DNA from: Bacteroidales bacterium
Lineage (GTDB): Bacteria > Bacteroidota > Bacteroidia > Bacteroidales > VadinHA17
DNA length: 64,000 nt
Direction: 5' to 3'
Assembly: GCA_035527935.1 (NCBI GenBank)
Contig: DATKZO010000048.1
Span: 58,690-122,689, forward strand
Each line of letters begins with the position of its first letter. Position 1 is the first letter of the stretch. This document shows, in pieces, positions 26,823 through 40,958 of the stretch. The notes under the pieces are model-generated. The model ran no database searches, had not been told where the DNA came from, and worked only from the letters and a program-made list of their open reading frames with translations. The translations under genes and the position numbers were made by a program.

Positions 26823-27833
26823 ATGGTATTTTTTAACTATCCATTAAGGGGCCATAACACCTTCAGGCTTGACGTTAAATGCAAAAGTTTTCATTCATTT
26901 GAGGATGAAACAGAACTTGCGGAGACAATCTCGGGAAAAGAATTTCTCCGGGACGATTTTCTATTTATAGGATCAGGCAGTAATATCCTTTTTACCGGCG
27001 ATTATCATGGGACTATCTTTCATCTCGAAAGCACGGAGATAAAGATTGTGGATACTTTAAATAATGATGTCATTGTTGTGTGCGATGCAGGCGTAAAATG
27101 GGATGACTTTGTTTTCTGGTGTGTTGACAAGAACCTTGGAGGCCTTGAAAACCTCTCCTTTATACCAGGCACAGTTGGAGCCTCACCGGTGCAGAATATA
27201 GGAGCTTATGGCGGAGAGGTGAAGGACTATATCATTAAGGTAAAAGCAGTGAATACTGAAACCGGTGAGTTCAGGTTTTTCACCAACCGGGAATGTGAAT
27301 TTTCATATCGTAACAGTCTGTTTAAATCAGAGTGTAAGGGCAAATATATCATTACAAAAGTATGGTTCAGGTTAAAGAAGGATCCATCTGTTTTTAATCT
27401 TTCTTATGGGGATGTTGATAAGAGGGTGAAAGCAACAGGTAATGTCAACCTGTTGAATATCAGGAATGCAATAATAGAAATCAGAAAAGATAAACTGCCC
27501 GATCCTGATCAGATCGGTAATGCAGGCAGTTTTTTCAGGAACCCTGTAATAAGCAGTCAAAAATTCAGGAAACTATCAGGTCAATACCCGGATATGCCCT
27601 CTTTCACTGAAGGGAATGATAGACTAAAAACCAGTGCTGCCTGGATGATCGAAAAATGTGGATGGAAAGGAAAACGTGTAGGGGATGCTGGCGTGTACGA
27701 AAAACAGGCTCTGGTACTTGTTAATCATGGAAATGCCTCAGGGAAAGAGATACTTGATCTTTCTGAAAGGATTAGAGGATCGGTCAGGGGAATGTTCGGG
27801 ATCGAGCTCGAGAGAGAGGTAAACATTATTTAA
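26823..27833 (+). CDS. murB: UDP-N-acetylenolpyruvoylglucosamine reductase
   Basis: 336 aa, with the FAD-binding pattern IGSGSNILF, PGTVGASPVQNIGAYG, GNAGSFFRNP and AAWMIEKCGWKG. Confidence 0.9.
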   Translation: MVFFNYPLRGHNTFRLDVKCKSFHSFEDETELAETISGKEFLRDDFLFIGSGSNILFTGDYHGTIFHLESTEIKIVDTLNNDVIVVCDAGVKWDDFVFWCVDKNLGGLENLSFIPGTVGASPVQNIGAYGGEVKDYIIKVKAVNTETGEFRFFTNRECEFSYRNSLFKSECKGKYIITKVWFRLKKDPSVFNLSYGDVDKRVKATGNVNLLNIRNAIIEIRKDKLPDPDQIGNAGSFFRNPVISSQKFRKLSGQYPDMPSFTEGNDRLKTSAAWMIEKCGWKGKRVGDAGVYEKQALVLVNHGNASGKEILDLSERIRGSVRGMFGIELEREVNII

Positions 27834-28858
27834 TTGTATATTTTCATCTTGTCGAGTTCTGACCAGTATTTATTGGCATAATTAAGATGCTCGTTCAGGT
27901 TAGTTGAGAAATGATGGTAGCCAGAAAAGTCGTACCTGGCAACAAAATAAAGATAATCATGCTTCACTGCCCCCAGTACGGATTCAATACCTGAAATAGT
28001 AGCACATCTGACAGGACCTGGTGGCAATCCTGTATATTTGTAGGTATTATAGGGCGAATCGATTGTAAGGTGTTCGATCAGTACACGTCGTATTGTAAAG
28101 TCATTCAATGCAAACTTTATAGTTGGGCAGGCTTGCATTGGCATATTGCGTCTCAGCCTGTTCAGGTACACACCGGCAATCATGGGCTTTTCGTCCTCCA
28201 TCATGACTTCATCATCAACTATTGAAGCAAGAATACTTACCTCAACAGGATTTAATCCAATTGCAGATGCCCTGTCAATTCGTTCACCGGACCAGAACCT
28301 ATTAAATTCCTTCAGCATTCTATCGTATAGCTCCTGTGGTGAAAAGGTCCAGTAAACCTCATATGTGTCGGGTATAAAAACAGCCATTACTGTTTCCATT
28401 ATAAATCCATCCCTTGAATAATTATCCTCATCCCTGAGAAACTCAATTAACTCCAGAGAGTCCGCTTCAAGCTGACTGCCTAACCTCCCGGCCAGCTCAT
28501 CAAGTGTCCTTATATTGTTGAAGGAAATATCCACAGGTGTTTGATTCCCTGCCCTTAAGAGGTTCATTATATCATTATTGCTAACCCTGTCGGGGATGTA
28601 ATAGTGGCCAGGTTTTATATTTGACCTGTAATTCTTTTTTTTTGCCAGTAGATCAAATACGACCTCATTTGCCAGTAATCCCTCTTCCCTTAGAATGTCT
28701 TTCACATCCTCATATTCAGCCTCACGATATATATAGATATCCTTCCCCGCATCTTCAATCCTGATTGGCCTGAGGGATGATCTCCAAACCAGAGTTATCA
28801 GTACTGCTACTGTTATTATTATTCCTGCGCCGATCCATCTTAAAAGCTTTCTGTCCAT
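27830..28858 (-). CDS. mltG: Endolytic murein transglycosylase MltG (YceG-like)
   Basis: 342 aa with an N-terminal TM anchor. It has SILASIVDDE, SPYNTYKYTGLPPGP and YLYFVA...HHFSTNLNEH motifs. Confidence 0.9.
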   Translation of the reverse strand: MDRKLLRWIGAGIIITVAVLITLVWRSSLRPIRIEDAGKDIYIYREAEYEDVKDILREEGLLANEVVFDLLAKKKNYRSNIKPGHYYIPDRVSNNDIMNLLRAGNQTPVDISFNNIRTLDELAGRLGSQLEADSLELIEFLRDEDNYSRDGFIMETVMAVFIPDTYEVYWTFSPQELYDRMLKEFNRFWSGERIDRASAIGLNPVEVSILASIVDDEVMMEDEKPMIAGVYLNRLRRNMPMQACPTIKFALNDFTIRRVLIEHLTIDSPYNTYKYTGLPPGPVRCATISGIESVLGAVKHDYLYFVARYDFSGYHHFSTNLNEHLNYANKYWSELDKMKIYN

Positions 28859-29001
28859 ATACTATATGATAAATTTAAGGTCTAAAAATAATATAATTAA
28901 ATATAAAAGCTTATAATCTGCTCAGAACTCAAAATTCATTTTGGGATTGAGTTAAAAAAAAATCAGAAACACTTGATCTTGACATACGTTATATATATAT
29001 T

Positions 29002-29037
29002 TATACTTTATTAGTATACTTACACTTTATTTGTATA
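29002..29037. promoter_or_regulatory. Two tandem operator-like palindromes upstream of the TetR gene (TATACTTTATTAGTATA and TACACTTTATTTGTATA)
   Basis: The sites are at 29002-29018 and 29021-29037, 19 bp apart centre to centre and 38-73 bp upstream of the TetR ATG. Each has 4-6 bp inverted arms around a TTTATT core. Confidence 0.45.
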
Positions 29038-29074
29038 TTTATATATTTATATTGTATTCATATCTCTTATAAAT

Positions 29075-29659
29075 ATGAGTAAACTGAATAAGAAATACTT
29101 ACAGATAATTGAAACTGGCAGGGATCTATTCTGGAAATACGGGATAAAGCGTGTTACAATTGAAGAGGTGTGCAGTAAGGCAAATGTAAGTAAGATGACA
29201 TTCTATAAACACTTCAGCAATAAGAATCATCTTGTAAAGCAAATCCTCGACTATATCTATGATGAGGGGATCAGGCATTACAGGTCAATAATGGATAGTG
29301 ACAAATTGTATAGGGAAAAAGTTGCAGACCTGGTCAAATTGAAAATAGATGCCACGAATGATATCAGTCACGAATTCCTGAACGATTATTACAGTATAAT
29401 GGACAATAAATTAAAAGGTTACCTTCAAAACTTAATGGAAAAGTATACCAAGATTTTTCTTACGGATTTTATCAAGGCACAGAAAACTGGTGATATCAGG
29501 GCAGATTTAAAACCTGAATTCATAATATATTTCATTAATCACATGGTCATACTGGTAAATGATCCGGCACTAAATGCCCTATACCCTGATGCACAGGAGA
29601 TGATACTGGAGCTAATGAATTTATTGTTTTACGGTATTATGCCGAGGACTGAGTCATAA
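29075..29659 (+). CDS. TetR/AcrR family transcriptional regulator
   Basis: 194 aa, with an N-terminal HTH (GIKRVTIEEVCSKANVSKMTFYKHFSNK). Confidence 0.9.
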   Translation: MSKLNKKYLQIIETGRDLFWKYGIKRVTIEEVCSKANVSKMTFYKHFSNKNHLVKQILDYIYDEGIRHYRSIMDSDKLYREKVADLVKLKIDATNDISHEFLNDYYSIMDNKLKGYLQNLMEKYTKIFLTDFIKAQKTGDIRADLKPEFIIYFINHMVILVNDPALNALYPDAQEMILELMNLLFYGIMPRTES

Positions 29660-29663
29660 AGCC

Positions 29664-30803
29664 ATGAATAATCTTTTAAAGATATTATTGTTTGCATTAA
29701 TAATCAGTACACTTGTCTCTACCGATCTAAATGCCCAGTTCCTGGATTTCAAAGGTATGGCAGCAGGATGGTTAACTTCAGGTTATAGTGACCAGATGGC
29801 GATGCAGGTAGGAGGCAGGTATATTCCCCAAATTGAAGGAATTATTCCACTAAAGAATAATTTAACCATTGAGGGTGAGTTCTCAGCAAATTTTGTTGGA
29901 AGCTATACCAGCCCTATTGAGGGAGATAAATTTTACGGAAAAATAAAACCGTATCGCATGTGGATGAAAATATCCGGTAATCAATTTGAAATACGGGCCG
30001 GGCTTCAAAAAATGAACTTTGGATCAGCTACAATATTGCGTCCGCTTATGTGGTTCGACAGGATAGATCCCCGGGACCCGTTACAACTGACTGACGGAGT
30101 CTACGGAGTATTGGGAAGGTATTATTTGCTTAACAATATTAATTTCTGGGCATGGGGGCTTTATGGGAATAAAGACACGAAAGGCTGGGAGGTATATGTA
30201 ACTGATAAGCACAGTGTCGAATTTGGTGGTCGCTTCCAGTTTCCTGTACCCAGGGCTGAGATCGGACTGACTTATCATTTCCGGAAAGCTACTCTGCCTT
30301 CAAATGTTTCGGGATTTGCTGATAACATAATCTTCCCTGAAAACAGGCTTGGAGTTGATATTAAAGCTGATCTTGGAATTGGAATCTGGATGGAAGATGT
30401 TGTTAAATACCAGGATCATGGATGGAACTATCCATATACGAATATGCTAACTATCGGAGCAGATTACACATTCGGGCTTGGTAATGGATTAAATATAATG
30501 TCCGAGCATTTTATCTATCAATTATCAGAGGATTTGTACGGAGATGATATGACTGTAAATTTTACAGGCTTATCTGCGAGTTATCCGCTATCCCTTACAG
30601 CTAACATCTCAGCAATACTTTACTATGACTGGGATAGCGAAGAGCTTTATCGATTCTTAAACCTTGGACTGACCTATGACAGGTTCAGTTATTACTTAAT
30701 GGGATTCTGGAATCCCGAGAGGTTCAGGATATTTGATTTTAATACAGGGCCGTCATTATTTAATGGAACGGGATTTCAGATAATGGTGGTTTATAATCAT
30801 TAA
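29664..30803 (+). CDS. Putative outer-membrane beta-barrel protein (signal peptide, amphipathic beta pattern), function unknown
   Basis: 379 aa. It has a signal ending LNAQ and is rich in alternating aromatic/Gly strands (GLTYHF, IGADYTFGLG, GLTYDRFSYYLMGFW). I recognised no family motif. Confidence 0.55.
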   Translation: MNNLLKILLFALIISTLVSTDLNAQFLDFKGMAAGWLTSGYSDQMAMQVGGRYIPQIEGIIPLKNNLTIEGEFSANFVGSYTSPIEGDKFYGKIKPYRMWMKISGNQFEIRAGLQKMNFGSATILRPLMWFDRIDPRDPLQLTDGVYGVLGRYYLLNNINFWAWGLYGNKDTKGWEVYVTDKHSVEFGGRFQFPVPRAEIGLTYHFRKATLPSNVSGFADNIIFPENRLGVDIKADLGIGIWMEDVVKYQDHGWNYPYTNMLTIGADYTFGLGNGLNIMSEHFIYQLSEDLYGDDMTVNFTGLSASYPLSLTANISAILYYDWDSEELYRFLNLGLTYDRFSYYLMGFWNPERFRIFDFNTGPSLFNGTGFQIMVVYNH

Positions 30804-30881
30804 AGACAAAATGTAAAAGGCGAAAGGCCACCGGTCATTAAGAGAATAAACAGTGACTTATTTTAGTAATCAGTGAATCAA

Positions 30882-30923
30882 CCCTGCCTGCCATGCCTGC
30901 GGCAGGTAAACCGGCAGGCAGGG
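30882..30923. repeat. GC-rich 11-bp inverted repeat (CCCTGCCTGCC ... GGCAGGCAGGG) inside the operon spacer
   Basis: The arms at 30882-30892 and 30913-30923 are exact complements with a 20-nt loop. It lies between the barrel gene and the ABC ATPase gene. Confidence 0.75.
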
Positions 30924-30953
30924 AAAAAGCGAATAAACAAATAAACAGAAAAA

Positions 30954-31652
30954 ATGAGCAATTCAGAAATTATTAACATTCGGGGACTTGTTAAACGATT
31001 CCCGATTGGTGGAGGTTATTTTACAGCCTTAGAAGATATTAATCTTAAGATTGATACCGGGGAGTTTACCGGTCTTGTGGGACCAAGTGGTTCCGGAAAA
31101 ACCACTATGCTGAATATTATCGGTTCACTTGACAATCCCACTGAAGGTGATGCCAGTGTGATGGATACTTCCATGCGTGGTATAAGTGCTAAAAGGGCTT
31201 CTACATTAAGAAGACAGCACTTTGGTTTCATATTTCAAACCTATAACCTGATGCCTGTTTATTCGGTATATGAAAATGTGGAGTTTCCACTCCTCCTGTT
31301 GAAAATGTCAGCTTCAGAGCGAAAAAAGGCTGTACTGGATGCGCTTGAATGGGTTAGTCTTACCGATAAAATCCGGTCAAAACCAAAACAGCTGTCCGGA
31401 GGAGAATCACAACGGGTAGCAATAGCCAGGGCAATGGTGAAACGTCCCCAAATGGTACTTGCCGACGAACCTACCGCAAACCTGGATGCTGAAAATTCTC
31501 ATCATATTCTCAAGACCATGGAGACGCTGAACAAAGAGTTGAATACCACATTCCTGTTTGCAACGCACGACGATAAAGTTATTAAATATCTGAGAAGGAT
31601 AATCCGTTTGGAGGATGGCAAAGTGGTTGCAGACGATCTGGTTAAAAACTGA
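30954..31652 (+). CDS. ABC transporter ATP-binding protein, LolD/MacB type
   Basis: 232 aa, with Walker A GPSGSGKTT, signature LSGGESQRVAIARA and Walker B MVLADEPT. Confidence 0.9.
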   Translation: MSNSEIINIRGLVKRFPIGGGYFTALEDINLKIDTGEFTGLVGPSGSGKTTMLNIIGSLDNPTEGDASVMDTSMRGISAKRASTLRRQHFGFIFQTYNLMPVYSVYENVEFPLLLLKMSASERKKAVLDALEWVSLTDKIRSKPKQLSGGESQRVAIARAMVKRPQMVLADEPTANLDAENSHHILKTMETLNKELNTTFLFATHDDKVIKYLRRIIRLEDGKVVADDLVKN

Positions 31653-31665
31653 AAGGAGGCATATT

Positions 31666-32838
31666 ATGTTAGCAATTAAACTGGCAATAAGAAACCTGGT
31701 TGGTGCAGGGTTTAGAACCTTCCTGAATGTCTTCATCCTTTCCGTTGCCTATGTGGTAATCATCATGCAAAATGGATTTATCCAGGGATGGAACAAACAG
31801 GCAAGGCACGACACCATTGAATGGGAGTATGGCCAGGGACAATACCGAAATGAAATCTACGATCCCTACGACCCATTCACCTATGAAGATGCACATGGGA
31901 TAATTCCTGATAAGTTGCTGCCTTCCTTTGAAAAGGGTAATATTGCCGCTGTCCTGATTTCGCAGGCTACAATATATCCTGAGGGTAGGTTAAAAAGCAT
32001 TATGCTTAAGGGGATTAATCCAGGACAAGAGGTTGTAGCCCTGCCAACATATAAACTTGTAGCTGAAAACGATGAAATCCCAGCAATAATTGGGTCCAGG
32101 ATGGCTGTCGATATTAAGGCAAACGTCGGCGATTTTGTACTTGTTCGCTGGAGAGATGCAAACGGGATGTTTGATGCTGTTGAAGTAATAATTACAGGAG
32201 TTTTTAGTACAAATGTTCCGGCAATTGACATGGGGCAGATATGGATTCCCTTGAAAAGCATGCAATCAATGATAGGCATTGAAAATGAAGCAACAATTAT
32301 TATAATTAAAAATGAAACCGATCGTGAATTGGATCTTGAAGGGTTCGATTTTTGGGATCACTCAGACCTACTGGCCGATATGGATGAGTTGATTAGGGGT
32401 AAATCAATAGGAAATGCTGTAATGTACTTGATATTGCTTGCACTTGCTCTGCTTGCAGTATTCGACACCCAGGTACTGTCAATATTCCGTCGTCAGAAGG
32501 AGATTGGAACTTTTATTGCCATGGGTATGACCCGCAGACAGGTAATTGGTGTATTCACAGTTGAGGGTACGATGCATGCAATTTTTGCTCTGATTATTGG
32601 CGCTCTATGGGGTGTTCCTACGCTTTTGAAATTGAAGCAAACAGGATTCCCTATGCCGGAAGGGATTGACCAGATGGGTCTCCCCATAAGTGAAACCATT
32701 ATTCCGGCCTACAGCATGGCCCTTGTAATAGGTACTGTAATCCTGGTAACATTAACAACAGCTATCGTGAGCTATATGCCAGCCAGGAAGATCGCGAAGA
32801 TGAATCCCAATGATGCCATCAGGGGAAAAATTCAATAA
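31666..32838 (+). CDS. ABC transporter permease, FtsX/MacB/LolC-E type (first of two)
   Basis: It starts MLAIKLAIRNLVGAGFRTFLN (ATG at 31666). It has a large extracytoplasmic domain after TM1 and a C-terminal FtsX 3-TM bundle ending PARKIAKMNPNDAIRG. Confidence 0.85.
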   Translation: MLAIKLAIRNLVGAGFRTFLNVFILSVAYVVIIMQNGFIQGWNKQARHDTIEWEYGQGQYRNEIYDPYDPFTYEDAHGIIPDKLLPSFEKGNIAAVLISQATIYPEGRLKSIMLKGINPGQEVVALPTYKLVAENDEIPAIIGSRMAVDIKANVGDFVLVRWRDANGMFDAVEVIITGVFSTNVPAIDMGQIWIPLKSMQSMIGIENEATIIIIKNETDRELDLEGFDFWDHSDLLADMDELIRGKSIGNAVMYLILLALALLAVFDTQVLSIFRRQKEIGTFIAMGMTRRQVIGVFTVEGTMHAIFALIIGALWGVPTLLKLKQTGFPMPEGIDQMGLPISETIIPAYSMALVIGTVILVTLTTAIVSYMPARKIAKMNPNDAIRGKIQ

Positions 32839-32859
32839 CCACTGCCATAATTTATAGAT

Positions 32860-34134
32860 ATGTTACGTTTTTTTATAAAAGGATTGCTCAGAGATCGTCA
32901 AAGAAGTCTGTTGCCAATTATTGTAGTTACACTGGGTGTAATGCTGGCAGTACTCATGCAGGCCTGGATCACGGGTATACTGGGTGATATCATAGATTTC
33001 AACTCCAGATTCGCAACAGGACATGTAAAGATCATGAGCCGGGCGTATAATGACATAAAAGACCAAAAACCCAACGACCTGGCTTTGTTGGAGGCTTCAG
33101 GTTTAATATCCGAATTGAAATCCAAATACCCGGATATGATATGGGCTGAGCGTATTAGTTTCGGTGGACTGATAGACTCTCCGGATGAGAATGGTGAGAC
33201 CAGGGAACAGGGACCTGCAATGGGTATGGCTGTTGACCTGCTGTCGGAGAACAGCCGTGAAGTTCAAAGGTTGAATCTGCAGAACATACTCGTGAGAGGA
33301 GAGCTACCCGACTCATCTAATGAAGTACTAATAAGTGAATTATTCTCACAGAGGTTGAAAGTAAATCCCGGAGATCAGGTTACACTGATCACTTCTACCA
33401 TGTATGGAGCAATGTCGATTACCAACTTCACAGTCACAGGGACTATTAAGTTCGGAGCTCCGGTGCTTGACCGTGGTGGAATTCTGGCTGATATATCAGG
33501 CATTAGAGAGGCTATGGATATGGAAGATGCTGTCGGTGAAATTCTTGGTTATTTCGGTGAAGGTGAATATGACGACGAGAAAGCAACAGCATTATCCAGT
33601 GCGTTTAACTCTGCCGATTCAGATCCTGAAGATCTGTTTTCACCTTTAATGGTTGAACTCAGTGAACAAGACGAACTTATTTCCGGATATCTTAATTTGG
33701 TGGGTCACATGCAGAGAATTGTCATTACAATATTCCTTGTAGCTATGGCAATCGTCCTATGGAATGCAGGATTACTGGGAGGATTAAGAAGATATGGTGA
33801 AATGGGTCTGAGAATGGCCATCGGAGAGCATAAAGGTCATATTTACAGGAGTCTGATCAGTGAATCACTGGTAATTGGAATAGTGGGATCGGTAGCAGGA
33901 ACAGCGATTGGTCTGTTTTTTGCAAGATTACTTGAGAATGGGCTTGATTTCAGCTCTATGCTTGAAGGATCTACCATGATGATGTCAGGGATATATAAAG
34001 CCCGGATTACACCTGAAACCTATTATATTGGATTCATACCCGGAATACTTGCCACGTTCCTCGGAACCGCACTGGCCGGTATTGGTATTTATAGACGCCA
34101 GACAGCCCAGTTATTCAAGGAGCTGCAGGCATAG
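32860..34134 (+). CDS. ABC transporter permease, FtsX/MacB/LolC-E type (second of two)
   Basis: 424 aa with the same architecture: TM1, a roughly 230-aa periplasmic domain and three C-terminal TM helices. Confidence 0.85.
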   Translation: MLRFFIKGLLRDRQRSLLPIIVVTLGVMLAVLMQAWITGILGDIIDFNSRFATGHVKIMSRAYNDIKDQKPNDLALLEASGLISELKSKYPDMIWAERISFGGLIDSPDENGETREQGPAMGMAVDLLSENSREVQRLNLQNILVRGELPDSSNEVLISELFSQRLKVNPGDQVTLITSTMYGAMSITNFTVTGTIKFGAPVLDRGGILADISGIREAMDMEDAVGEILGYFGEGEYDDEKATALSSAFNSADSDPEDLFSPLMVELSEQDELISGYLNLVGHMQRIVITIFLVAMAIVLWNAGLLGGLRRYGEMGLRMAIGEHKGHIYRSLISESLVIGIVGSVAGTAIGLFFARLLENGLDFSSMLEGSTMMMSGIYKARITPETYYIGFIPGILATFLGTALAGIGIYRRQTAQLFKELQA

Positions 34135-34158
34135 TGTAAACTTTTAAAGATCAGAATA

Positions 34159-34890
34159 ATGAAGAATATAATTATCGTGCTCTTGTTTAGCACAACAGTC
34201 TGCCTGGGGCAAATTCCCTCAGGAGAAACAATCCTGGATCGAATAGATCAGAATATGTCATCCGACACAAGGCATGTCATATCAAAAATGGTGATCCATG
34301 GTGCACGCACTACAAGAACCATTGAGGCGGAAACATGGTCAGCCGGTGATGATGAATCATATACAGAATACCTGGCGCCGGCCAGGGAAAAAGGTACAAA
34401 AATGCTTAAGCTGGAAGATAAACTCTGGATCTTCTCTCCCGGAACAGACCGAACCATACAAATCTCGGGACATATGCTTCGTCAATCAGTGATGGGTTCG
34501 GATCTGTCCTACGAAGATATGATGGATGATCCTAACCTGAGAAATAAATATGACGCCGCTGTAACAGGGAGTGAAGAATTGGATGGTGCAGACTGTTGGG
34601 TGCTGGAATTACAGGCCAATTCCCCGGATGTAGCCTACCAGATGAGAAAACTCTGGGTCGATAAATCGAGATACCTGCCTCTGAAAGAGGAACTGTATGC
34701 AAAAAGCGGTACACTGCTGAAGAAAACAGAATTGTTTGATATAAAAAGGATTGGCAACCGCTGGTACCCCGGGAAGATCATCTTCAAGGATATGCTGAAA
34801 AATGGTGATGGTACTGAATTCATAGTCGACAACATTGTTTTCGACGAGCCAATTCCGGAGCATCTCCTGAGTAAGGCTGCCTTGAGATAA
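34159..34890 (+). CDS. Outer membrane lipoprotein-sorting protein (LolA-like fold family)
   Basis: 243 aa with a signal peptide. It matches the LolA_like pattern as I remember it (ILDRIDQN, KLWIFSPGTDRTIQISG, MGSDLSYEDM, DCWVLEL, KLWVDKSRYLPLKEELYAKSGTLLK). Confidence 0.8.
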   Translation: MKNIIIVLLFSTTVCLGQIPSGETILDRIDQNMSSDTRHVISKMVIHGARTTRTIEAETWSAGDDESYTEYLAPAREKGTKMLKLEDKLWIFSPGTDRTIQISGHMLRQSVMGSDLSYEDMMDDPNLRNKYDAAVTGSEELDGADCWVLELQANSPDVAYQMRKLWVDKSRYLPLKEELYAKSGTLLKKTELFDIKRIGNRWYPGKIIFKDMLKNGDGTEFIVDNIVFDEPIPEHLLSKAALR

Positions 34891-35167
34891 AAAATACCCG
34901 GTATCAGATTCCCTAAGCACATTGTTAATCTGTGTTTAAATCTGAAATCAGTAACATGGGGAAAGCAGGCATTAAACGGAAAAAACAGCCTGCTTACCGA
35001 TTAAACTTGACTAATATTATTTAGATTCATATAGTTGTATATTATTTTTCTTGAAATATCAGGTTTGGAGCAGTATCAGATAACCGAAATAGTATATTTA
35101 CTGAATCAAATAATTGAAACAAATTAATTCATAGATCCTAAATCAATTCTAGCCAAATAAATGCACA

Positions 35168-36031
35168 ATGAAAACCATTCTTAAAAACCCGGGATGCTGG
35201 CTGGCGCTGCTGGCATCTGTATTAGTTATGACAGGCTGTTCAGCAACTAAAACAGCAAAAACTGTTGACCCCGGACTTAAGTATAAACTTTCCGGAAGCA
35301 GCAATTTCTCCTATACCCTGAACGCTGAGGTAACTCAGTCGATTGATGTTGGTGGCCAGGATGTAGGAGCAACAATATTGAGTTCTACAGGTTTCACACT
35401 GACTCCCGGACAGGCAGCAGCCGGTGTGATACCGCTAAAGGTCACAATTGATACTGTTGGTATCACTATTCAATCACCTCAGGGGAACCTGGTTGAAACC
35501 AAGAGCGAGCTCAAGGGAAGACAATTTAATATGACGATTTCAGAATTTGGAAAGGAAGATAACCTTGATGAAGCTGAAGAAATTAAATATATGGTGGCAG
35601 GCCAGCAGGAATCCAACCTGAAGGGCACATTCGTTATGCTGTTTCCTGATCTTCCTGAAATAACGTATAAAGAGGGAACCTCATGGACAGATAATGATAC
35701 AATAGACATTAGTACAAGCTCAGATAATGCTATGATGATTATGCAGTCAGAAAACATATTCGCTGGTACGGAAGAATTTGAAGGCTACCACTGTGTACGT
35801 ATTAACTCCAGGATAAAAGGTGAGAGAACAAGTGTTTCAAATACGCCTCAGGGCCAGATAACAACTGACGGCGCCCTTGAGGGTGAATCATCTTTTCTAT
35901 TTGTCCCTGATCAGGGAATACTTGTATGGGCTGAGTCAAATGTTACGATGAAAGGATATGTTTCTGTCCCTACCGGAGATTCATACCCATTGCAGGTAAT
36001 TACCAAATATGTAACAAAATTGGTGAAGTAG
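35168..36031 (+). CDS. Hypothetical lipoprotein
   Basis: 287 aa with lipobox LVMTGCSA and a beta-rich Thr/Ser/Gly composition. I recognised no family. Confidence 0.6.
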   Translation: MKTILKNPGCWLALLASVLVMTGCSATKTAKTVDPGLKYKLSGSSNFSYTLNAEVTQSIDVGGQDVGATILSSTGFTLTPGQAAAGVIPLKVTIDTVGITIQSPQGNLVETKSELKGRQFNMTISEFGKEDNLDEAEEIKYMVAGQQESNLKGTFVMLFPDLPEITYKEGTSWTDNDTIDISTSSDNAMMIMQSENIFAGTEEFEGYHCVRINSRIKGERTSVSNTPQGQITTDGALEGESSFLFVPDQGILVWAESNVTMKGYVSVPTGDSYPLQVITKYVTKLVK

Positions 36032-36144
36032 GCAATTAGGCTCTTCATCAGCTATACAACGGCCATAAAAGAAGAAAACCCATGCCGTAAAACCTAAAAC
36101 CTATGTAGAAACGAAACTTAAAATATTCTGGCATCTTTTTCATG

Positions 36145-36206
36145 ACTGCCCGGCATGGGTTTGTATGAGGATTCTTACATATGACCATTCAGCAGTAAAT
36201 AACCCT
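36145..36206. repeat. 62-bp dispersed direct repeat, copy A
   Basis: ACTGCCCGGCATGGGTTTGTATGAGGATTCTTACATATGACCATTCAGCAGTAAATAACCCT. It matches copy B at 54 of 62 positions by my alignment. Its CGGCATGGGTTT segment is also the reverse complement of 36076-36087. Confidence 0.85.
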
Positions 36207-36363
36207 ATTTGAAATAACGATTTTTTTTTTGATTTAAATTCTCCAACGCATAAATTAGAGAGTGGAGATAAAAGTTGATTGGAATCACAGCTCCTGCCCC
36301 CCTGACTACCTGCGCAGACGTAGTTTTATAAGCGCCCCCTGATCCTGTTATGATCGTTATATC

Positions 36364-36795
36364 TCATATCTTGCGATTCAATGATTCCATGCGCTTCTCC
36401 AACTCCTTAAATCTTTCATGCATCTGCTTTTCAAGATGCTCCATCCTCTCCCCGAATTCTTCAAGGAATTGCTCATCAATTCTGAAATCAGGTATACTGA
36501 AATCATAATCATACCCAAACTCAAAATCGCGATAAAATCCATGCAATCTGAATGTGGGAATATCAAAATAGAAATAGTTTTTATCTGCCCAGCGTTCAGG
36601 TTTTTCATATTCCTGTCCTGATTCCAGTGCCTCAAGAATGTTCAGCATTGAGTTCCTGCTATCAGGACCCTGGGCCTTTGTATCCTCCCTCCCGGTAATA
36701 TCCTGTGGGGGGTAGCCGAATGAGGTGAAACCGACAACCGATACCATCAGTATGGCAGTTGTAATTAATCTGGTAATATTTCTGCTTGTGTTCAT
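36364..36795 (-). CDS. Hypothetical small secreted/anchored protein with C-terminal coiled-coil-like tail
   Basis: I prefer the start MNTSRNITRLITTAILMVSVVGFTS (ATG at 36795) over the track start at 36882, which lies inside repeat copy B. It has an aromatic/acidic core and a KELEKRMESLNRKI tail. Confidence 0.55.
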   Translation of the reverse strand: MNTSRNITRLITTAILMVSVVGFTSFGYPPQDITGREDTKAQGPDSRNSMLNILEALESGQEYEKPERWADKNYFYFDIPTFRLHGFYRDFEFGYDYDFSIPDFRIDEQFLEEFGERMEHLEKQMHERFKELEKRMESLNRKI

Positions 36796-36844
36796 AGCTA
36801 GAGTTATTAGTCTGTTTTGATCGAATCTTCTCGCGGCAAGCTGC

Positions 36845-36906
36845 ACTGCCCGGCTTGGGTTTGTACGAGGATTCATATACATGACCCTTCAGCAGCTAAT
36901 AACCCT
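36845..36906. repeat. 62-bp dispersed direct repeat, copy B
   Basis: ACTGCCCGGCTTGGGTTTGTACGAGGATTCATATACATGACCCTTCAGCAGCTAATAACCCT. It has the same orientation as copy A and starts exactly 700 bp downstream of it. Confidence 0.85.
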
Positions 36907-36949
36907 GGAGGATTCTTCGATCCCTTTAATTAATTTGTTTTCCTTGCTC

Positions 36950-37065
36950 TCTAATCCCGCCGCGAGCATCGGTGAACCGAGTTTACGAGCTCGGCGATTT
37001 CGTCGGACCCAGCCCCGGGAAATCGGGGTGAAGTTCGAATCCAATACGCTTGCCGGGATTCACAA
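36950..37065. ncRNA. GC-rich, hairpin-dense intergenic island; candidate structured RNA or 5' leader (strand unresolved, family unknown)
   Basis: Local hairpins are CCGAG(36977-81)/CTCGG(36990-94) and CCCCG(37013-17)/CGGGG(37024-28). The 12-nt segment at 36830-36841 can pair with 36959-36966 (8 bp) or with 37048-37055 (8 bp), but not both. No convincing ORF is present. Confidence 0.3.
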
Positions 37066-37151
37066 GGTAAATTAATGAAATATTCTGCTTCGCTTTGCTT
37101 AATGCAATGTTAAAGTATAAGGATTAATCACACTTTTTGGTTAACAAAAAT

Positions 37152-38045
37152 TTACACTCGTGTGAGCTGGGGCCAGCCTTTTCTGATTTTTTCAACTTTC
37201 AGCCGTAATGGTTCTCCTGAAGCAAAGGTGTGAGTGGTCTTGATCCTGTGATTGTAACCGTATAGATCGGTAACAATTGCAATATGTTTAGTTCTGCCGG
37301 CAATTGTAATTACTTCCTTAACAGTAAAATCATATACTTCACCAATCTTAAAGAATGGATTCTCGGGCTCAATCCTTATGTTGGTATTTTTTCTGTATCT
37401 GATGAATCTGCCTCTGAATTCCGATCCCTTTTTCAAACCATAGTGTTTATAGTATTCATATGGGAGGCTATGTTTGATTCCCGATGGGCTGGTCACGAGG
37501 AAATATGATCTGCCATCAATACCCTTAACCACATCATCTATTTGAAAAAGGGTATAACTCTCCTCTTCGGATTCGATGGTTCTTTTCTCATCTCTGGTTC
37601 CTGCCACAATAATCTGACCCTTTGTAATTCTTTCTATTAACAAGCTGATAGTATCGCCTGGTGATATCTCTCGGTCTCCAATATATTCATCAGGAATAAC
37701 TACCTCTGCACCTGCCACTCCGGAGGCTACGATCACGCCATGTGGCCTTCCTGACCTATCGATCCTGATATCCCTCTCAGTAATGGTGAATTCATATTTT
37801 TCCCCTTCCCTGTAATATGGATGTTCCGGCTCAAGATATACCTCACCGTTACAATTTATTTTATCTACCCTGCAATGAATTGTCCCGTCAAGAATAATGT
37901 TGTATCCGTAATACCTGGCTGACGGGATCAGATATCGTCTGTTGTCAGGTCCTTTAAGAACAAAATAGGTTTCCTCTTCAAATCTGACTGTCTTGGTTAC
38001 CTGGAAAATATACTTCTTACCCTCTTCAAGTCTCATTTTCATCAA
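37152..38045 (-). CDS. Hypothetical protein made of two homologous halves (beta-rich, OB/SH3-like by composition)
   Basis: 297 aa. The internal duplication is visible by eye: YFVLKGPDNRRYLIPSARYYGYNI...VYLEPEHPYYREGEKYEFTI versus YFLVTSPSGIKHSLPYEYYKHYGL...IRIEPENPFFKIGEVYDFTV. Its start overlaps the cls stop by 4 nt. Confidence 0.6.
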   Translation of the reverse strand: MMKMRLEEGKKYIFQVTKTVRFEEETYFVLKGPDNRRYLIPSARYYGYNIILDGTIHCRVDKINCNGEVYLEPEHPYYREGEKYEFTITERDIRIDRSGRPHGVIVASGVAGAEVVIPDEYIGDREISPGDTISLLIERITKGQIIVAGTRDEKRTIESEEESYTLFQIDDVVKGIDGRSYFLVTSPSGIKHSLPYEYYKHYGLKKGSEFRGRFIRYRKNTNIRIEPENPFFKIGEVYDFTVKEVITIAGRTKHIAIVTDLYGYNHRIKTTHTFASGEPLRLKVEKIRKGWPQLTRV

Positions 38046-39514
38046 TATAACGGTCCCAGTATTCTGGCAAGTGATTCTTTGTATTTCTCGCTTCTCCGTC
38101 TGCCTGGCCAGAGATCGGGCAATACCTCATTACAGTCCTTAAGGTCTTCCATGAACACATTATGCAGCCTATGTGCGAATTGTTCATCATATATCAATGC
38201 CGCAACTTCAAAATTAAGGTCAAAGCTGCGCATATCAACATTCACTGAACCAACAGAGGCAAATACATCATCAACAATAATGTATTTTGAATGATTAAAC
38301 CCACCATAGTAGAGATATATGCTGACGCCAGCCTCAAGCAATTCGGAAATATATGATCTGGTATTCCAATTTCCGATCACCGAATCGCTCTTTCCCGGAA
38401 GAATTATTCTCACATCAAGTCCTTCCAGTCCGGCAGTTTTCAAAGCGGTAAGGATGCTTTCATTCGGAGAGAAATATGGAGTACAAAGGTAAATATACCT
38501 GCTGGCTGTGGCAATTGATGAAAAATATACCTGCATGATGTTTGCCCAGTCGCTGTCAGGGCCGCTTGATGCCACCTGTACCCAGCAATTTCCACTGACC
38601 TGATGTTTTTTCAGATATTTCTCATCCTTTGTCAGTATCTCACTGCTTACAAAGTACCAGTCGACAAGGAACAGGCGGTTCATTGCTCCTACTGCATCTC
38701 CCCGTATCTCCAGGTGGGTATCCCGCCAGGGTCCGATCTCTTCAAGACCCTTAATATATTTATCTGCAATATTCAACCCTCCAATAAATCCTCTTTTACC
38801 ATCAACTACCAGGATTTTCCTGTGATTCCTGTAATTTATCTTGTTGGTCAGAAGCGGAAATTTCACTGGCATGAAGGGAAATAACCTGACACCTGCCTTT
38901 CTCATTTCCCTGATATACTTTCTTTTGAAACTCCAGCTTCCTACATCATCCATAATTATCCTGACCTCCACTCCCTGCCTTGCTTTTTCGATTAAAAGAT
39001 GTCTGAATATATTACCTGTTTCATCAATATCGAATCTGTAAAACTCCAGGTGTACATAATCTGTTGCTGAGCTGATTGCTTCAAGCATAGCCGGGAATGC
39101 TTCATTGGCATTCTGAAGAAGCGTTACCTCATTATTTTCAGTCAGCATTGCCCGTTCATTGTTGAGCATAAGTGTCATCAGGTGAGATTTTGACCTTATA
39201 CTTTCACTCTTCTCCACTAACTTGCTGCTCAATGACTCGATCTGCTCTATTGCAAGGCGGGATAAATATTCGGAATCGACGACTCCCTTACGGTTGAAGA
39301 TCTTCTTTTTTCTATAACTCTGGCCAAAGAAGAGATATAAACCAATCCCAAATACCGGAATGAGCAATATTACAAGAACCCAGGCGAGTGTTTTTTCAGG
39401 TGGTCTGTTCTCAAAAATTATGATCAGGCATAGAAAGAGCATGGTTACAAGATATATAACCGACAAAATAAGCGTCACCGGGTGAAAACCTATTTTTGTG
39501 AGAGTCTCCATCAT
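38042..39514 (-). CDS. cls: Cardiolipin synthase (ClsA type)
   Basis: 490 aa with two N-terminal TM helices and two HKD motifs (HRKILVVDGKRGFIGGLN and HSKYIIVDDVFASVGSVN). Confidence 0.9.
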   Translation of the reverse strand: MMETLTKIGFHPVTLILSVIYLVTMLFLCLIIIFENRPPEKTLAWVLVILLIPVFGIGLYLFFGQSYRKKKIFNRKGVVDSEYLSRLAIEQIESLSSKLVEKSESIRSKSHLMTLMLNNERAMLTENNEVTLLQNANEAFPAMLEAISSATDYVHLEFYRFDIDETGNIFRHLLIEKARQGVEVRIIMDDVGSWSFKRKYIREMRKAGVRLFPFMPVKFPLLTNKINYRNHRKILVVDGKRGFIGGLNIADKYIKGLEEIGPWRDTHLEIRGDAVGAMNRLFLVDWYFVSSEILTKDEKYLKKHQVSGNCWVQVASSGPDSDWANIMQVYFSSIATASRYIYLCTPYFSPNESILTALKTAGLEGLDVRIILPGKSDSVIGNWNTRSYISELLEAGVSIYLYYGGFNHSKYIIVDDVFASVGSVNVDMRSFDLNFEVAALIYDEQFAHRLHNVFMEDLKDCNEVLPDLWPGRRRSEKYKESLARILGPLY

Positions 39515-39530
39515 TTATAGGGTTCGACCT

Positions 39531-39571
39531 ATAAAAATAAAAAACTCTCCTGTAATTACTACAGGAGAGTT
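39531..39571 (-). terminator. Rho-independent terminator after the 39597-40208 gene
   Basis: On the minus strand, AACTCTCCTGTA-gtaat-TACAGGAGAGTT (12-bp stem) is followed by TTTTATTTTTAT. Confidence 0.8.
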
Positions 39572-39596
39572 CCGTAATATTTCTAATATAATAAAA

Positions 39597-40208
39597 CTAG
39601 AACATAATACCTGCACTAAGTACAATGGCATTTGCTCTCCCGTCGAGTGTGAATGTTTCAGTCCCGACAGTCATCTCATTTCCAAAGTTATTCAGTCCGC
39701 CTTCATATCTTACATCAAGAGTAAGCTTCTTGAAAAGGTCGACTCCAAGACCTGCCTGGTATCCGAATGTAGCATTCTTATAGAGATTTTCTGCGTCAGT
39801 CACAAGGTCACCTGGTGAACTTATTACCACTGAGGCTACCGGCCCGGCCATAATTCTTAGTGGACCCAACTTCACCCCAAGCATAACCGGAACATCAAGC
39901 CTGTTGAACTTTTGCTCCTTAACTGTTTCAGCTCCCAGATCATCTGTAACAGTTAAATTATTTTCAGACATTGAGAATAAAACTTCAGGTTGAACCATTA
40001 TTCCCAGCATTGACAATCTAAAAAAAGCTCCACCATGAAAACCCCAGGTTGCCTCTTTTGCAGCTTCAAGTGTATTTCCTGCGTTGATGTCTGCCACAGG
40101 CAGCTCAAAAGTATTGGATGAAGCTCCTGCTTTCAAGCCCCAGCTGAACTGAGCAAAAGCACCAGTTGACAGAACAACTGATAATAGTACTAAAATGATC
40201 TTTTTCAT
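39597..40208 (-). CDS. Outer membrane beta-barrel protein (small porin/OmpW-like family)
   Basis: 203 aa. It has a signal peptide ending GAFAQ, alternating beta-strand pattern and a C-terminal SAGIMF. Confidence 0.7.
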   Translation of the reverse strand: MKKIILVLLSVVLSTGAFAQFSWGLKAGASSNTFELPVADINAGNTLEAAKEATWGFHGGAFFRLSMLGIMVQPEVLFSMSENNLTVTDDLGAETVKEQKFNRLDVPVMLGVKLGPLRIMAGPVASVVISSPGDLVTDAENLYKNATFGYQAGLGVDLFKKLTLDVRYEGGLNNFGNEMTVGTETFTLDGRANAIVLSAGIMF

Positions 40209-40274
40209 ACTAATTCATTTTTGTTTATAATAATATGACAGCAACCAGCGTCAAAAGGTTGCTTTCCCCTTTAA

Positions 40275-40958
40275 TTAATCATTAAACTTATATCCTACAC
40301 CTTTTATTGTCTGTATATGCTCTCCCCCGATTTTTTCCCTCAATTTCCTGATATGTACATCTATAGTCCTGTCTCCGACAATAATATCCTCACCCCAGAC
40401 CTTTTGAAAAATTTCGATCCGTGTAAACACCTTACCTGGTTTTGATATCAGCAGGGAAAGCAGTTCAAATTCCTTTCTGGGGAGGTTTACCTCTTGTTCA
40501 TCTATCATTATTAAAAACCTTTCCCTGTTCAATACGATATTGCCAGAACTAAGAACCTCATTGCCTGCATTTACCGCATCTGTTCTGTAACGGCGCATCA
40601 ATGCCTTTATCCTGCTTACAAGCAACTTAGGTTTTACAGGCTTGATGATATAATCATCCCCTCCTGCTTCAAAACCGGCAATCTGGGAAAAATCCTCACT
40701 TCGGGCAGTAAGAAAGCAGATAATTGCAGAATCCATTTCGGGATAACTCCTGATACGCTCACATGCCTCAACACCATCCATCCCTGGCATCATAACATCC
40801 AGCAGTATAAGATTGGGGCGCTCTGTGATCGCAAGTTTAACTCCGGATGCTCCATCAGATGCGGTTATTACATCAAACCCCTCCTTGTGCAGGGTATAGG
40901 AAAGGAACTCCCTGATATCAGGCTCATCATCAACCAGAAGTATTTTGAATTGAGACAC
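40275..40958 (-). CDS. Response regulator transcription factor, OmpR/PhoB family
   Basis: 227 aa. The receiver domain has LLVDDEPDI and DVMMPGMDG, and the winged-helix output has RTIDVHIRKLREKI and GVGYKF. Confidence 0.9.
   Translation of the reverse strand: MSQFKILLVDDEPDIREFLSYTLHKEGFDVITASDGASGVKLAITERPNLILLDVMMPGMDGVEACERIRSYPEMDSAIICFLTARSEDFSQIAGFEAGGDDYIIKPVKPKLLVSRIKALMRRYRTDAVNAGNEVLSSGNIVLNRERFLIMIDEQEVNLPRKEFELLSLLISKPGKVFTRIEIFQKVWGEDIIVGDRTIDVHIRKLREKIGGEHIQTIKGVGYKFND

Follow-up and report, generated by a model that had tools for sequence, protein, structure and literature searches.

The question raised by this locus is why one small gene should lie between two copies of the same short sequence. 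The locus belongs to a Bacteroidales bacterium (contig DATKZO010000048.1, positions 58,690 to 122,689); the 64,000-nt stretch analysed is referred to below as the window and positions are those of the window. Two 62-nt direct repeats, copy A (36145–36206) and copy B (36845–36906), flank a small gene on the minus strand (36364–36795). An earlier reading of the DNA, made from the sequence alone and called here the sequence-only reading, had offered a short dispersed repeat family, recombination sites allowing loss or amplification of the intervening cassette, or a shared regulatory or RNA element. The last of these came closest, in that copy A lies in a conserved, terminator-like element, but the copies are not equivalent, A being ancient and B recent and partial. 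The explanation that we favour, with moderate confidence, is that copy A belongs to a conserved RNA element at the 3′ end of a transcription unit and that copy B is a lineage-specific partial copy borne by a small insertion.

The geometry of the repeats is as had been described. A repeat search of positions 35000–38000 returned one 62-nt direct-repeat family made up of copies A and B, which have the same orientation, are identical at 54 of 62 positions (87%) and start 700 bp apart; the gene between them is an open reading frame (ORF) of 143 aa on the minus strand. A 29-nt degenerate core, allowed up to three mismatches, had no match in the 64-kb window apart from these two sites (0 expected from 100 shuffles), and a profile built from the orthologues matched the full element described below and copy B but nothing else. 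Alignment of the flanks of A with those of B (105–114 nt on each side) did not rise above the level of shuffled sequence, so the 62-mer is sharply bounded, and homology extending past it was looked for and not found. The 12-bp inverted pair formed by 36076–36087 and 36151–36162 is 100% complementary and no inverted partner of copy B was found within about 500 nt, so here too the sequence-only reading held. No significance could be detected in the A–B spacing of exactly 700 bp. The start of copy B (36896–36906) and the region just before the start codon (36800–36810) form an 11-nt pair that is 91% complementary, plausibly due to chance.

To place the repeats in an evolutionary setting, contigs were gathered, first those carrying relatives of the small protein and then those with homologues of the two genes beside it. 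One protein in a GenBank entry named ‘MAG TPA: Bacteroidales bacterium’ is 100% identical to the small protein, which has two other relatives only. In this set copy A proved to be the 5′ 62 nt, or the 5′ two-fifths, of a conserved non-coding element of about 150 nt on the minus strand (36060–36211; nhmmer E=4e-47), which is found at the equal relative position and on the same strand in at least six lineages besides the window. The seven-lineage alignment (A8) comprises the window (W), L006, L012/L013, L014, L021, L024 and L027. Pairwise identity of the element is 60–89%, as against 28–58% for the small protein and 43–79% for the 296-aa protein encoded upstream of it, and the blocks ATAGGGT, GGTCAT, CCCATGCC, GTCATGAA and GGCATGGGTTTT are invariant in all seven lineages. 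Copy A itself includes the blocks AGGGT, GGTCAT and ACCCATGCCGGGCAGT. The sequence-only reading had allowed for a repeat that is not conserved in relatives at all; the element containing copy A is conserved in seven lineages. In each of these the element follows, on the same strand, either the small gene or, in L027, a 294-aa gene (in this lineage the element is present and the small gene absent), and the 296-aa gene is upstream of the element in every element-bearing lineage. L022, L025 and L026 have the 29x-aa gene and neither the small gene nor the element. On the strength of this alignment we take copy A to be the 5′ part of a larger conserved non-coding element, not a free-standing repeat. 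One further contig, L008, follows L012/L013 at 99.9% identity as far as a point in the loop of the element (L008 positions 701–909 compared); past this breakpoint it continues as unrelated sequence ending in a truncated fragment of a Kup-like potassium transporter on the other strand, the result either of chimeric assembly or of a real rearrangement whose breakpoint falls in the element.

The conservation of the element is not that of a protein-coding sequence. No frame, whichever the strand, is preserved in all seven elements, each being broken in some lineage: the L006 element has compensating −2/+2 indels within conserved nucleotides and the L014 element has an early stop in the minus-strand frame. 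What is conserved is a structure. RNAalifold gave a long-range stem of 11 bp, P1 (AAACCCAUGCC / GGCAUGGGUUU), with a small hairpin, P2, inside it. Read on the minus strand of the window, the 5′ arm of P1 is AAACCCAUGCCG (36151–36162, inside copy A) and the 3′ arm, recovered by the inverted-pair search, is CGGCAUGGGUUU (36076–36087). Directly after P1 comes a U-rich tract, UCUUCUUUUAUG (36064–36075), which extends the UUU at the end of the stem and is T-rich in 7/7 lineages. The layout from 5′ to 3′ is an unpaired region of about 50 nt carrying invariant blocks, P1 enclosing P2, and the U-rich tract. P1 is paired in 98.7% of cells across the seven lineages, 8 of its 11 pairs never vary, and it encloses 63–75 nt. 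P2 (GGCAgUC...GAuGCC, 36130–36150 in the loop of P1) is a more tentative feature, paired in 85% of cells and broken in L021 and L027. Two observations distinguish the strands: two independent A-to-G changes in the 5′ arm of P1 give G.U pairs on the minus strand and would be A.C mismatches on the plus strand, and the T-rich tract follows the stem on the minus strand only.

The position of the element is that expected of a 3′ untranslated region (UTR). TAnnTTTG is the promoter consensus of Bacteroidetes (PMC7366714), and no exact match to it was found on either strand of 35950–37250, nor was one upstream of the element; in L013 the element begins 12 nt past the stop codon. Both facts fit a 3′ UTR. 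The sequence-only reading had put the copies in the 3′ (A) and 5′ (B) UTRs of the small gene on the minus strand, and this is where they would lie in our reading as well. The stop codon of the small gene and the element are separated by about 150 nt in the window (36212–36363, with a run of ten A residues) and by less in other lineages: about 12 nt (L013), 20 nt (L021), 58 nt (L006) and 85 nt (L024). The gap in the window is a second lineage-specific expansion of the locus. Rfam returned 0 matches at the gathering score over the 64-kb window and only chance-level matches at E up to 10 for 35900–37300, which makes the element a candidate new RNA motif without an Rfam match. The most likely reading is that a transcription unit ends in this element as a terminator-embedded RNA. 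In a group of uncultured Bacteroidales it would form the 3′ end, transcribed from the minus strand, of a unit that encodes a cardiolipin synthase, the 296-aa beta-barrel protein and, in lineages that have it, the small secreted protein. The invariant 11-bp stem and the U-rich tract would act as an intrinsic terminator, and the element may leave a stable 3′-end RNA, either a 3′-UTR-derived small RNA or a protein-binding 3′ UTR. Minus-strand transcription and the terminator or small-RNA role are what we infer from the layout.

Copy B has a different history. It is a same-sense partial paralogue of A on the minus strand, matching profile positions 7–68 only, and it is not followed by a 3′ stem arm. 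For the window and four other lineages (L006, L012/L013, L021 and L024) the sequence upstream of the small gene could be aligned. A promoter-like intergenic block (37059–37151, minus strand) is conserved in all five, and the window alone has an extra 230–240 nt or so between it and the start codon. Just downstream of this block lies an insertion of 228 nt (36831–37058), lineage-specific and resembling a miniature inverted-repeat transposable element (MITE), which with copy B is absent from all four other lineages, their conserved flanks being kept. Its boundaries are marked by the terminal inverted repeats TCGCGGCAAGC (36831–36841, left) and GCTTGCCGGGA (37048–37058, right), which are complementary at 10 of 11 positions, a level that shuffling of the two 30-nt boundary zones equalled in 5 of 2000 trials. 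TTC is found at both ends (including 36828–36830), a possible 3-bp target duplication that is too short to judge. The insertion lies in the 5′ leader of the small gene, with the promoter-like block on one side and the start codon on the other, and copy B occupies its gene-proximal end, 3 nt inside the inverted repeat. The core of the insertion (approximately 36940–37060) is GC-rich and forms strong folds on both strands (z = −1.8 and −2.3). A T-loop-like sequence, GTTCGAATCC, had raised the suspicion of a transfer RNA or transfer-messenger RNA in the insertion, but ARAGORN found none. Other copies of the insertion were sought in the window, related loci, plasmids (by distant BLASTN), viral contigs and translated-ORF space and none was found; a translated 64-aa ORF across the insertion, compared with 1.84 billion protein representatives, retrieved three unrelated repetitive proteins only. 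Three blocks within 37059–37151 are conserved in the five lineages, namely TGTAAATTTTTGTTAACCAAA (which overlaps the stop codon of the upstream gene), TTTAACAnTnCATTAA and TTATTTCATTAnTTTAC, and they probably serve as promoter or leader signals; this stretch has no exact TAnnTTTG, one-mismatch versions only.

The age of copy B can be judged from its relatives. It matches the window's own copy A at 54/62 positions and the orthologues of A at 44–49/62, and since it is closer to the A of its own genome than to that of any orthologue the copy was made within this lineage. The differences between B and A fall at 6 of 24 positions that vary in the family and at 2 of 38 that are invariant. Assuming that the variable positions evolve almost neutrally, their divergence of 25% would leave copied flanks recognisable and none are seen, so only the 62 nt were copied. 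Copy B appears, then, to be a lineage-specific partial copy delivered with, or into, the insertion, and the route we infer is as follows. Copy B would have arisen in the lineage of the window from the unpaired 5′ region plus the 5′ stem arm, which together make up the 62 nt; the insertion would have landed between the promoter-like block and the start codon; and the mRNA of the small gene would as a result bear the same-sense 62-nt module in both of its untranslated regions. Copy B is probably a tolerated by-product of the insertion event, and a function for it is less likely but quite possible. If it is functional it would either share a binding partner with A or pair, at 11 of 12 positions, with the 3′ stem arm of the element. 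A bolder version, which we rate a long shot, is that the 62-nt module is an RNA handle (AGGGU, GGUCAU and one stem arm) for a trans-acting partner and that the B copy created a new circuit. The partner could be the 296-aa multi-barrel protein or an antisense RNA, and the 5′ and 3′ untranslated regions of one mRNA would compete for it or be bridged by it. In another form of this idea, the pairing of copy B with the 3′ stem arm could couple termination and translation.

A number of points weigh against the explanation of a 3′-end RNA element with an insertion-borne partial copy. Changes on both sides of a pair that would be compensatory were seen in 0 pairs of P1 and P2, and support from covariation is nil because the stems never vary. 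A stem enclosing 63–75 nt is unusual for an intrinsic terminator. When the 62-mers were folded as RNA with 10 nt of flank, their stability on either strand was no better than that of shuffles. The distribution of B–A differences over variable and invariant positions (Fisher p=0.047) gives a marginal hint, at most, of a constraint shared with copy A. The MITE-like nature of the insertion is argued from the inverted repeat and the empty-site comparison, with no second copy found. Finally, an invariant two-arm stem could equally be an inverted repeat bound by protein at the DNA level, and this last point leads to the rival that survives best, namely that the copies and the inverted partner are DNA binding sites of a sequence-specific protein such as a regulator, with looping or co-regulation possible. 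The 12-bp motif concerned, AAACCCATGCCG, occurs as an inverted pair around the loop of the element and as a third half-site with one mismatch in copy B, and these three sites are the only matches of at least 11/12 to it in 64 kb. The arms of P1 are invariant in seven lineages without covariation, as a DNA site predicts and a plain terminator need not show, and the neighbouring 296-aa protein is predicted to contain OB-like barrels, a fold common in nucleic-acid binders. However, the two A-to-G changes in the 5′ arm keep G.U pairing in RNA but break the symmetry of the DNA, the spacing of the half-sites (63–75 bp and variable) is atypical of operators, conservation runs well past the motif (AGGGT, GGTCAT and GTCATGAA), and the T-rich tract after the stem fits termination. 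We consider a DNA site unlikely, while recognising that it deserves to be kept in view.

The 3′-end element and its partial copy also have to be weighed against the proposal that both copies are members of a low-copy MITE-like family with other members outside the 64-kb window. Copy B does lie within an inverted-repeat-bounded unit that is absent from empty orthologous sites, and L008 departs from its near-identical relatives inside the element. Moreover, two assemblies, apparently of one sample, break inside copy B at 36850–36855, as assemblies do at repeats: of the JGI contigs L019 stops at 36850 and L001 at 36855, where the two abut without variant sequence, and the Logan contig L002 (SRR8554511), its sample presumably shared with the JGI assembly, ends at 36851. 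Such breaks could come from a dip in coverage or from minor-strain heterogeneity; the JGI and Logan assemblies share another break near 33841–33853. Searches of large collections are of limited help here. A 19-mer core scanned against 185,579 species-representative genomes gave three hits, which their unrelated flanks mark as chance, and a gapped pattern accommodating both copy types gave two orthologous loci and two chance hits among JGI metagenome contigs; the window's own locus was missing from the hits of both scans, even though there are JGI contigs that carry it, so that the rest of the source genome is effectively unsearched. Nevertheless, a mobile copy would not be orthologous and syntenic in seven lineages, as copy A is, the window and about 100 kb of related loci hold no other copies, the species-representative genomes and JGI contigs contain no true match beyond orthologues, and the searches with the insertion, both as DNA and as translated ORFs, found nothing. 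Viral contigs scanned with the element pattern and with the insertion pattern gave 0 hits each, and five other contigs read straight through copy B. A family of this sort is improbable, and the dispersed repeat family of the sequence-only reading found no backing, there being no third copy in the window and nothing but orthologues and chance hits in the collections.

Still less probable, and in our judgement very nearly excluded, is that the direct repeats are homologous or site-specific recombination sites for deletion, excision or amplification of the 700-bp unit. The geometry, a single gene between direct repeats, fits such a role, and the contig breaks inside copy B could be read in the same way. 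Yet the longest identical run shared by the two copies is 10 bp, well under the 23–27 bp that is the minimal efficient processing segment for RecA-dependent recombination (PMC12074656), which makes recombination between them unlikely. No integrase or recombinase is among the genes called in window positions 27152–40388, and the two contigs that meet at the break simply abut. The sequence-only reading had suggested a search for variants lacking or duplicating the 700-bp unit. Other assemblies supplied eight contigs with 100% identity to the window, five of them spanning copy B and four of those both copies, and as far as an assembly consensus can tell none of the five spanning contigs carries a deletion or duplication. 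The relatives, furthermore, have the gene and copy A without copy B. The more specific notion of integron attC sites was also rejected, since the core sites R′ (GTTRRRY) and R″ (RYYYAAC) are missing from both strands of both copies, the repeats fold no better than shuffles and there are two of them only. The repeats are not a mobile or recombining gene cassette.

Least credible of all is that the repeats encode a small peptide, be it (M/L)GLYEDSY(I/T) on the plus strand or the leader MNPRTNPSRAV... on the minus strand: the plus-strand mini-frame noted in the sequence-only reading is indeed open in both copies, with mostly synonymous differences, and the minus-strand frame from the ATG at 36876 is likewise open and shares the frame of the small gene, but the mini-frame is stopped after 3 codons in one orthologue (L006), its peptides are poorly conserved and vary freely elsewhere (MGLYVDTSI, MGFIVESYI, MGYYVYYN), and stops and frameshifts in the orthologues rule out small ORFs on both strands. 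Several assemblies (L015–L018 and L020) call the small gene as 170 aa from that ATG, which is inside copy B. The orthologous small proteins start at the position of the ATG at 36795 and have no extension, so the 27-residue extension (36796–36876) is probably an artefact of the insertion, which is in frame.

The proteins encoded around the element give few clues to its role. The 143-aa product of the small gene has, by inspection only, a signal-peptide-like N-terminus, and its C-terminus is coiled-coil-like. Sequence searches of Pfam, NCBIfam and PDB with this protein, with the 296-aa protein and with the 287-aa product of a convergent gene returned nothing. Many Bacteroidales keep the 296-aa gene (37152–38042, minus strand) beside the one for cardiolipin synthase, and a homologue of the 296-aa protein is named an AbrB/PrlF-type DNA-binding antitoxin in one source. 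AlphaFold2, run on a 25-sequence alignment, predicted tandem beta-barrels for this protein (mean predicted local distance difference test score 86), and Foldseek gave the model weak matches to OB-type binders (HIN, the Mop domain of ModE, Teb1 and cold-shock domains); a functional link between the protein and the element is speculation. The convergent 287-aa gene (35168–36031, plus strand) is lipoprotein-like, its product having 3 matches at E<=1e-10 among 5.8 billion proteins and its distant homologues a faint DUF6263 signal.

What looked like a cassette can be resolved into an old element, a recent partial copy of it and a small insertion, and a mobile or phase-variable gene for a secreted protein is no longer suggested. 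There is in its place a candidate RNA motif of uncultured Bacteroidales, the core of which stayed invariant while the neighbouring protein fell to under 30% identity. If it is transcribed as predicted, the element adds to the small set of 3′-end or UTR-derived regulatory RNAs in Bacteroidota. Should copy B be functional it would be an example of such a module redeployed to a 5′ leader, and if the handle reading were true the locus would show regulatory rewiring caught in the act, via partial duplication of an RNA element on a small insertion.

Comparison with known systems sets these conclusions in context. The likeness to integron cassettes and attC arrays, including clusters lacking an integrase, lies in the flanking of one small ORF by direct repeats of 60-odd bp at cassette-like spacing. 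Unlike integron cassettes, the repeats have neither R′/R″ cores nor an attC-like palindrome, they number two with no integrase called nearby (27152–40388), one of them is fixed and syntenic in seven lineages, and the gene is orthologous rather than variable. The insertion resembles MITEs in being short and non-coding, with 11-nt terminal inverted repeats (10/11), a possible 3-bp duplication and four empty sites. It differs from them in that no second copy was found in the sequence searched, in that its target duplication is too short to convince, and in that part of a neighbouring host element (copy B) is included in it, a cargo that is not usual in MITEs. The closest parallels are intrinsic terminators and 3′-UTR-derived small RNAs, of which CpxQ, from the cpxP 3′ UTR of enterobacteria, is an example. 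Here too there are differences. The stem of the element encloses 63–75 nt and not the short loop of an intrinsic terminator, both of its arms are invariant without covariation, the element matches no Rfam family, and it is known here from sequence. Small RNAs derived from 3′ UTRs have been documented in Bacteroides, with 21 UTR-derived candidates in Bacteroides thetaiotaomicron (PMC7366714). As in terminators and such RNAs, the element directly follows a coding gene on the same strand with no separate TAnnTTTG promoter directly upstream, has a G+C-containing stem followed by a U-rich tract and is conserved far better than the adjacent protein, and its conserved unpaired 5′ stretch resembles a seed region.

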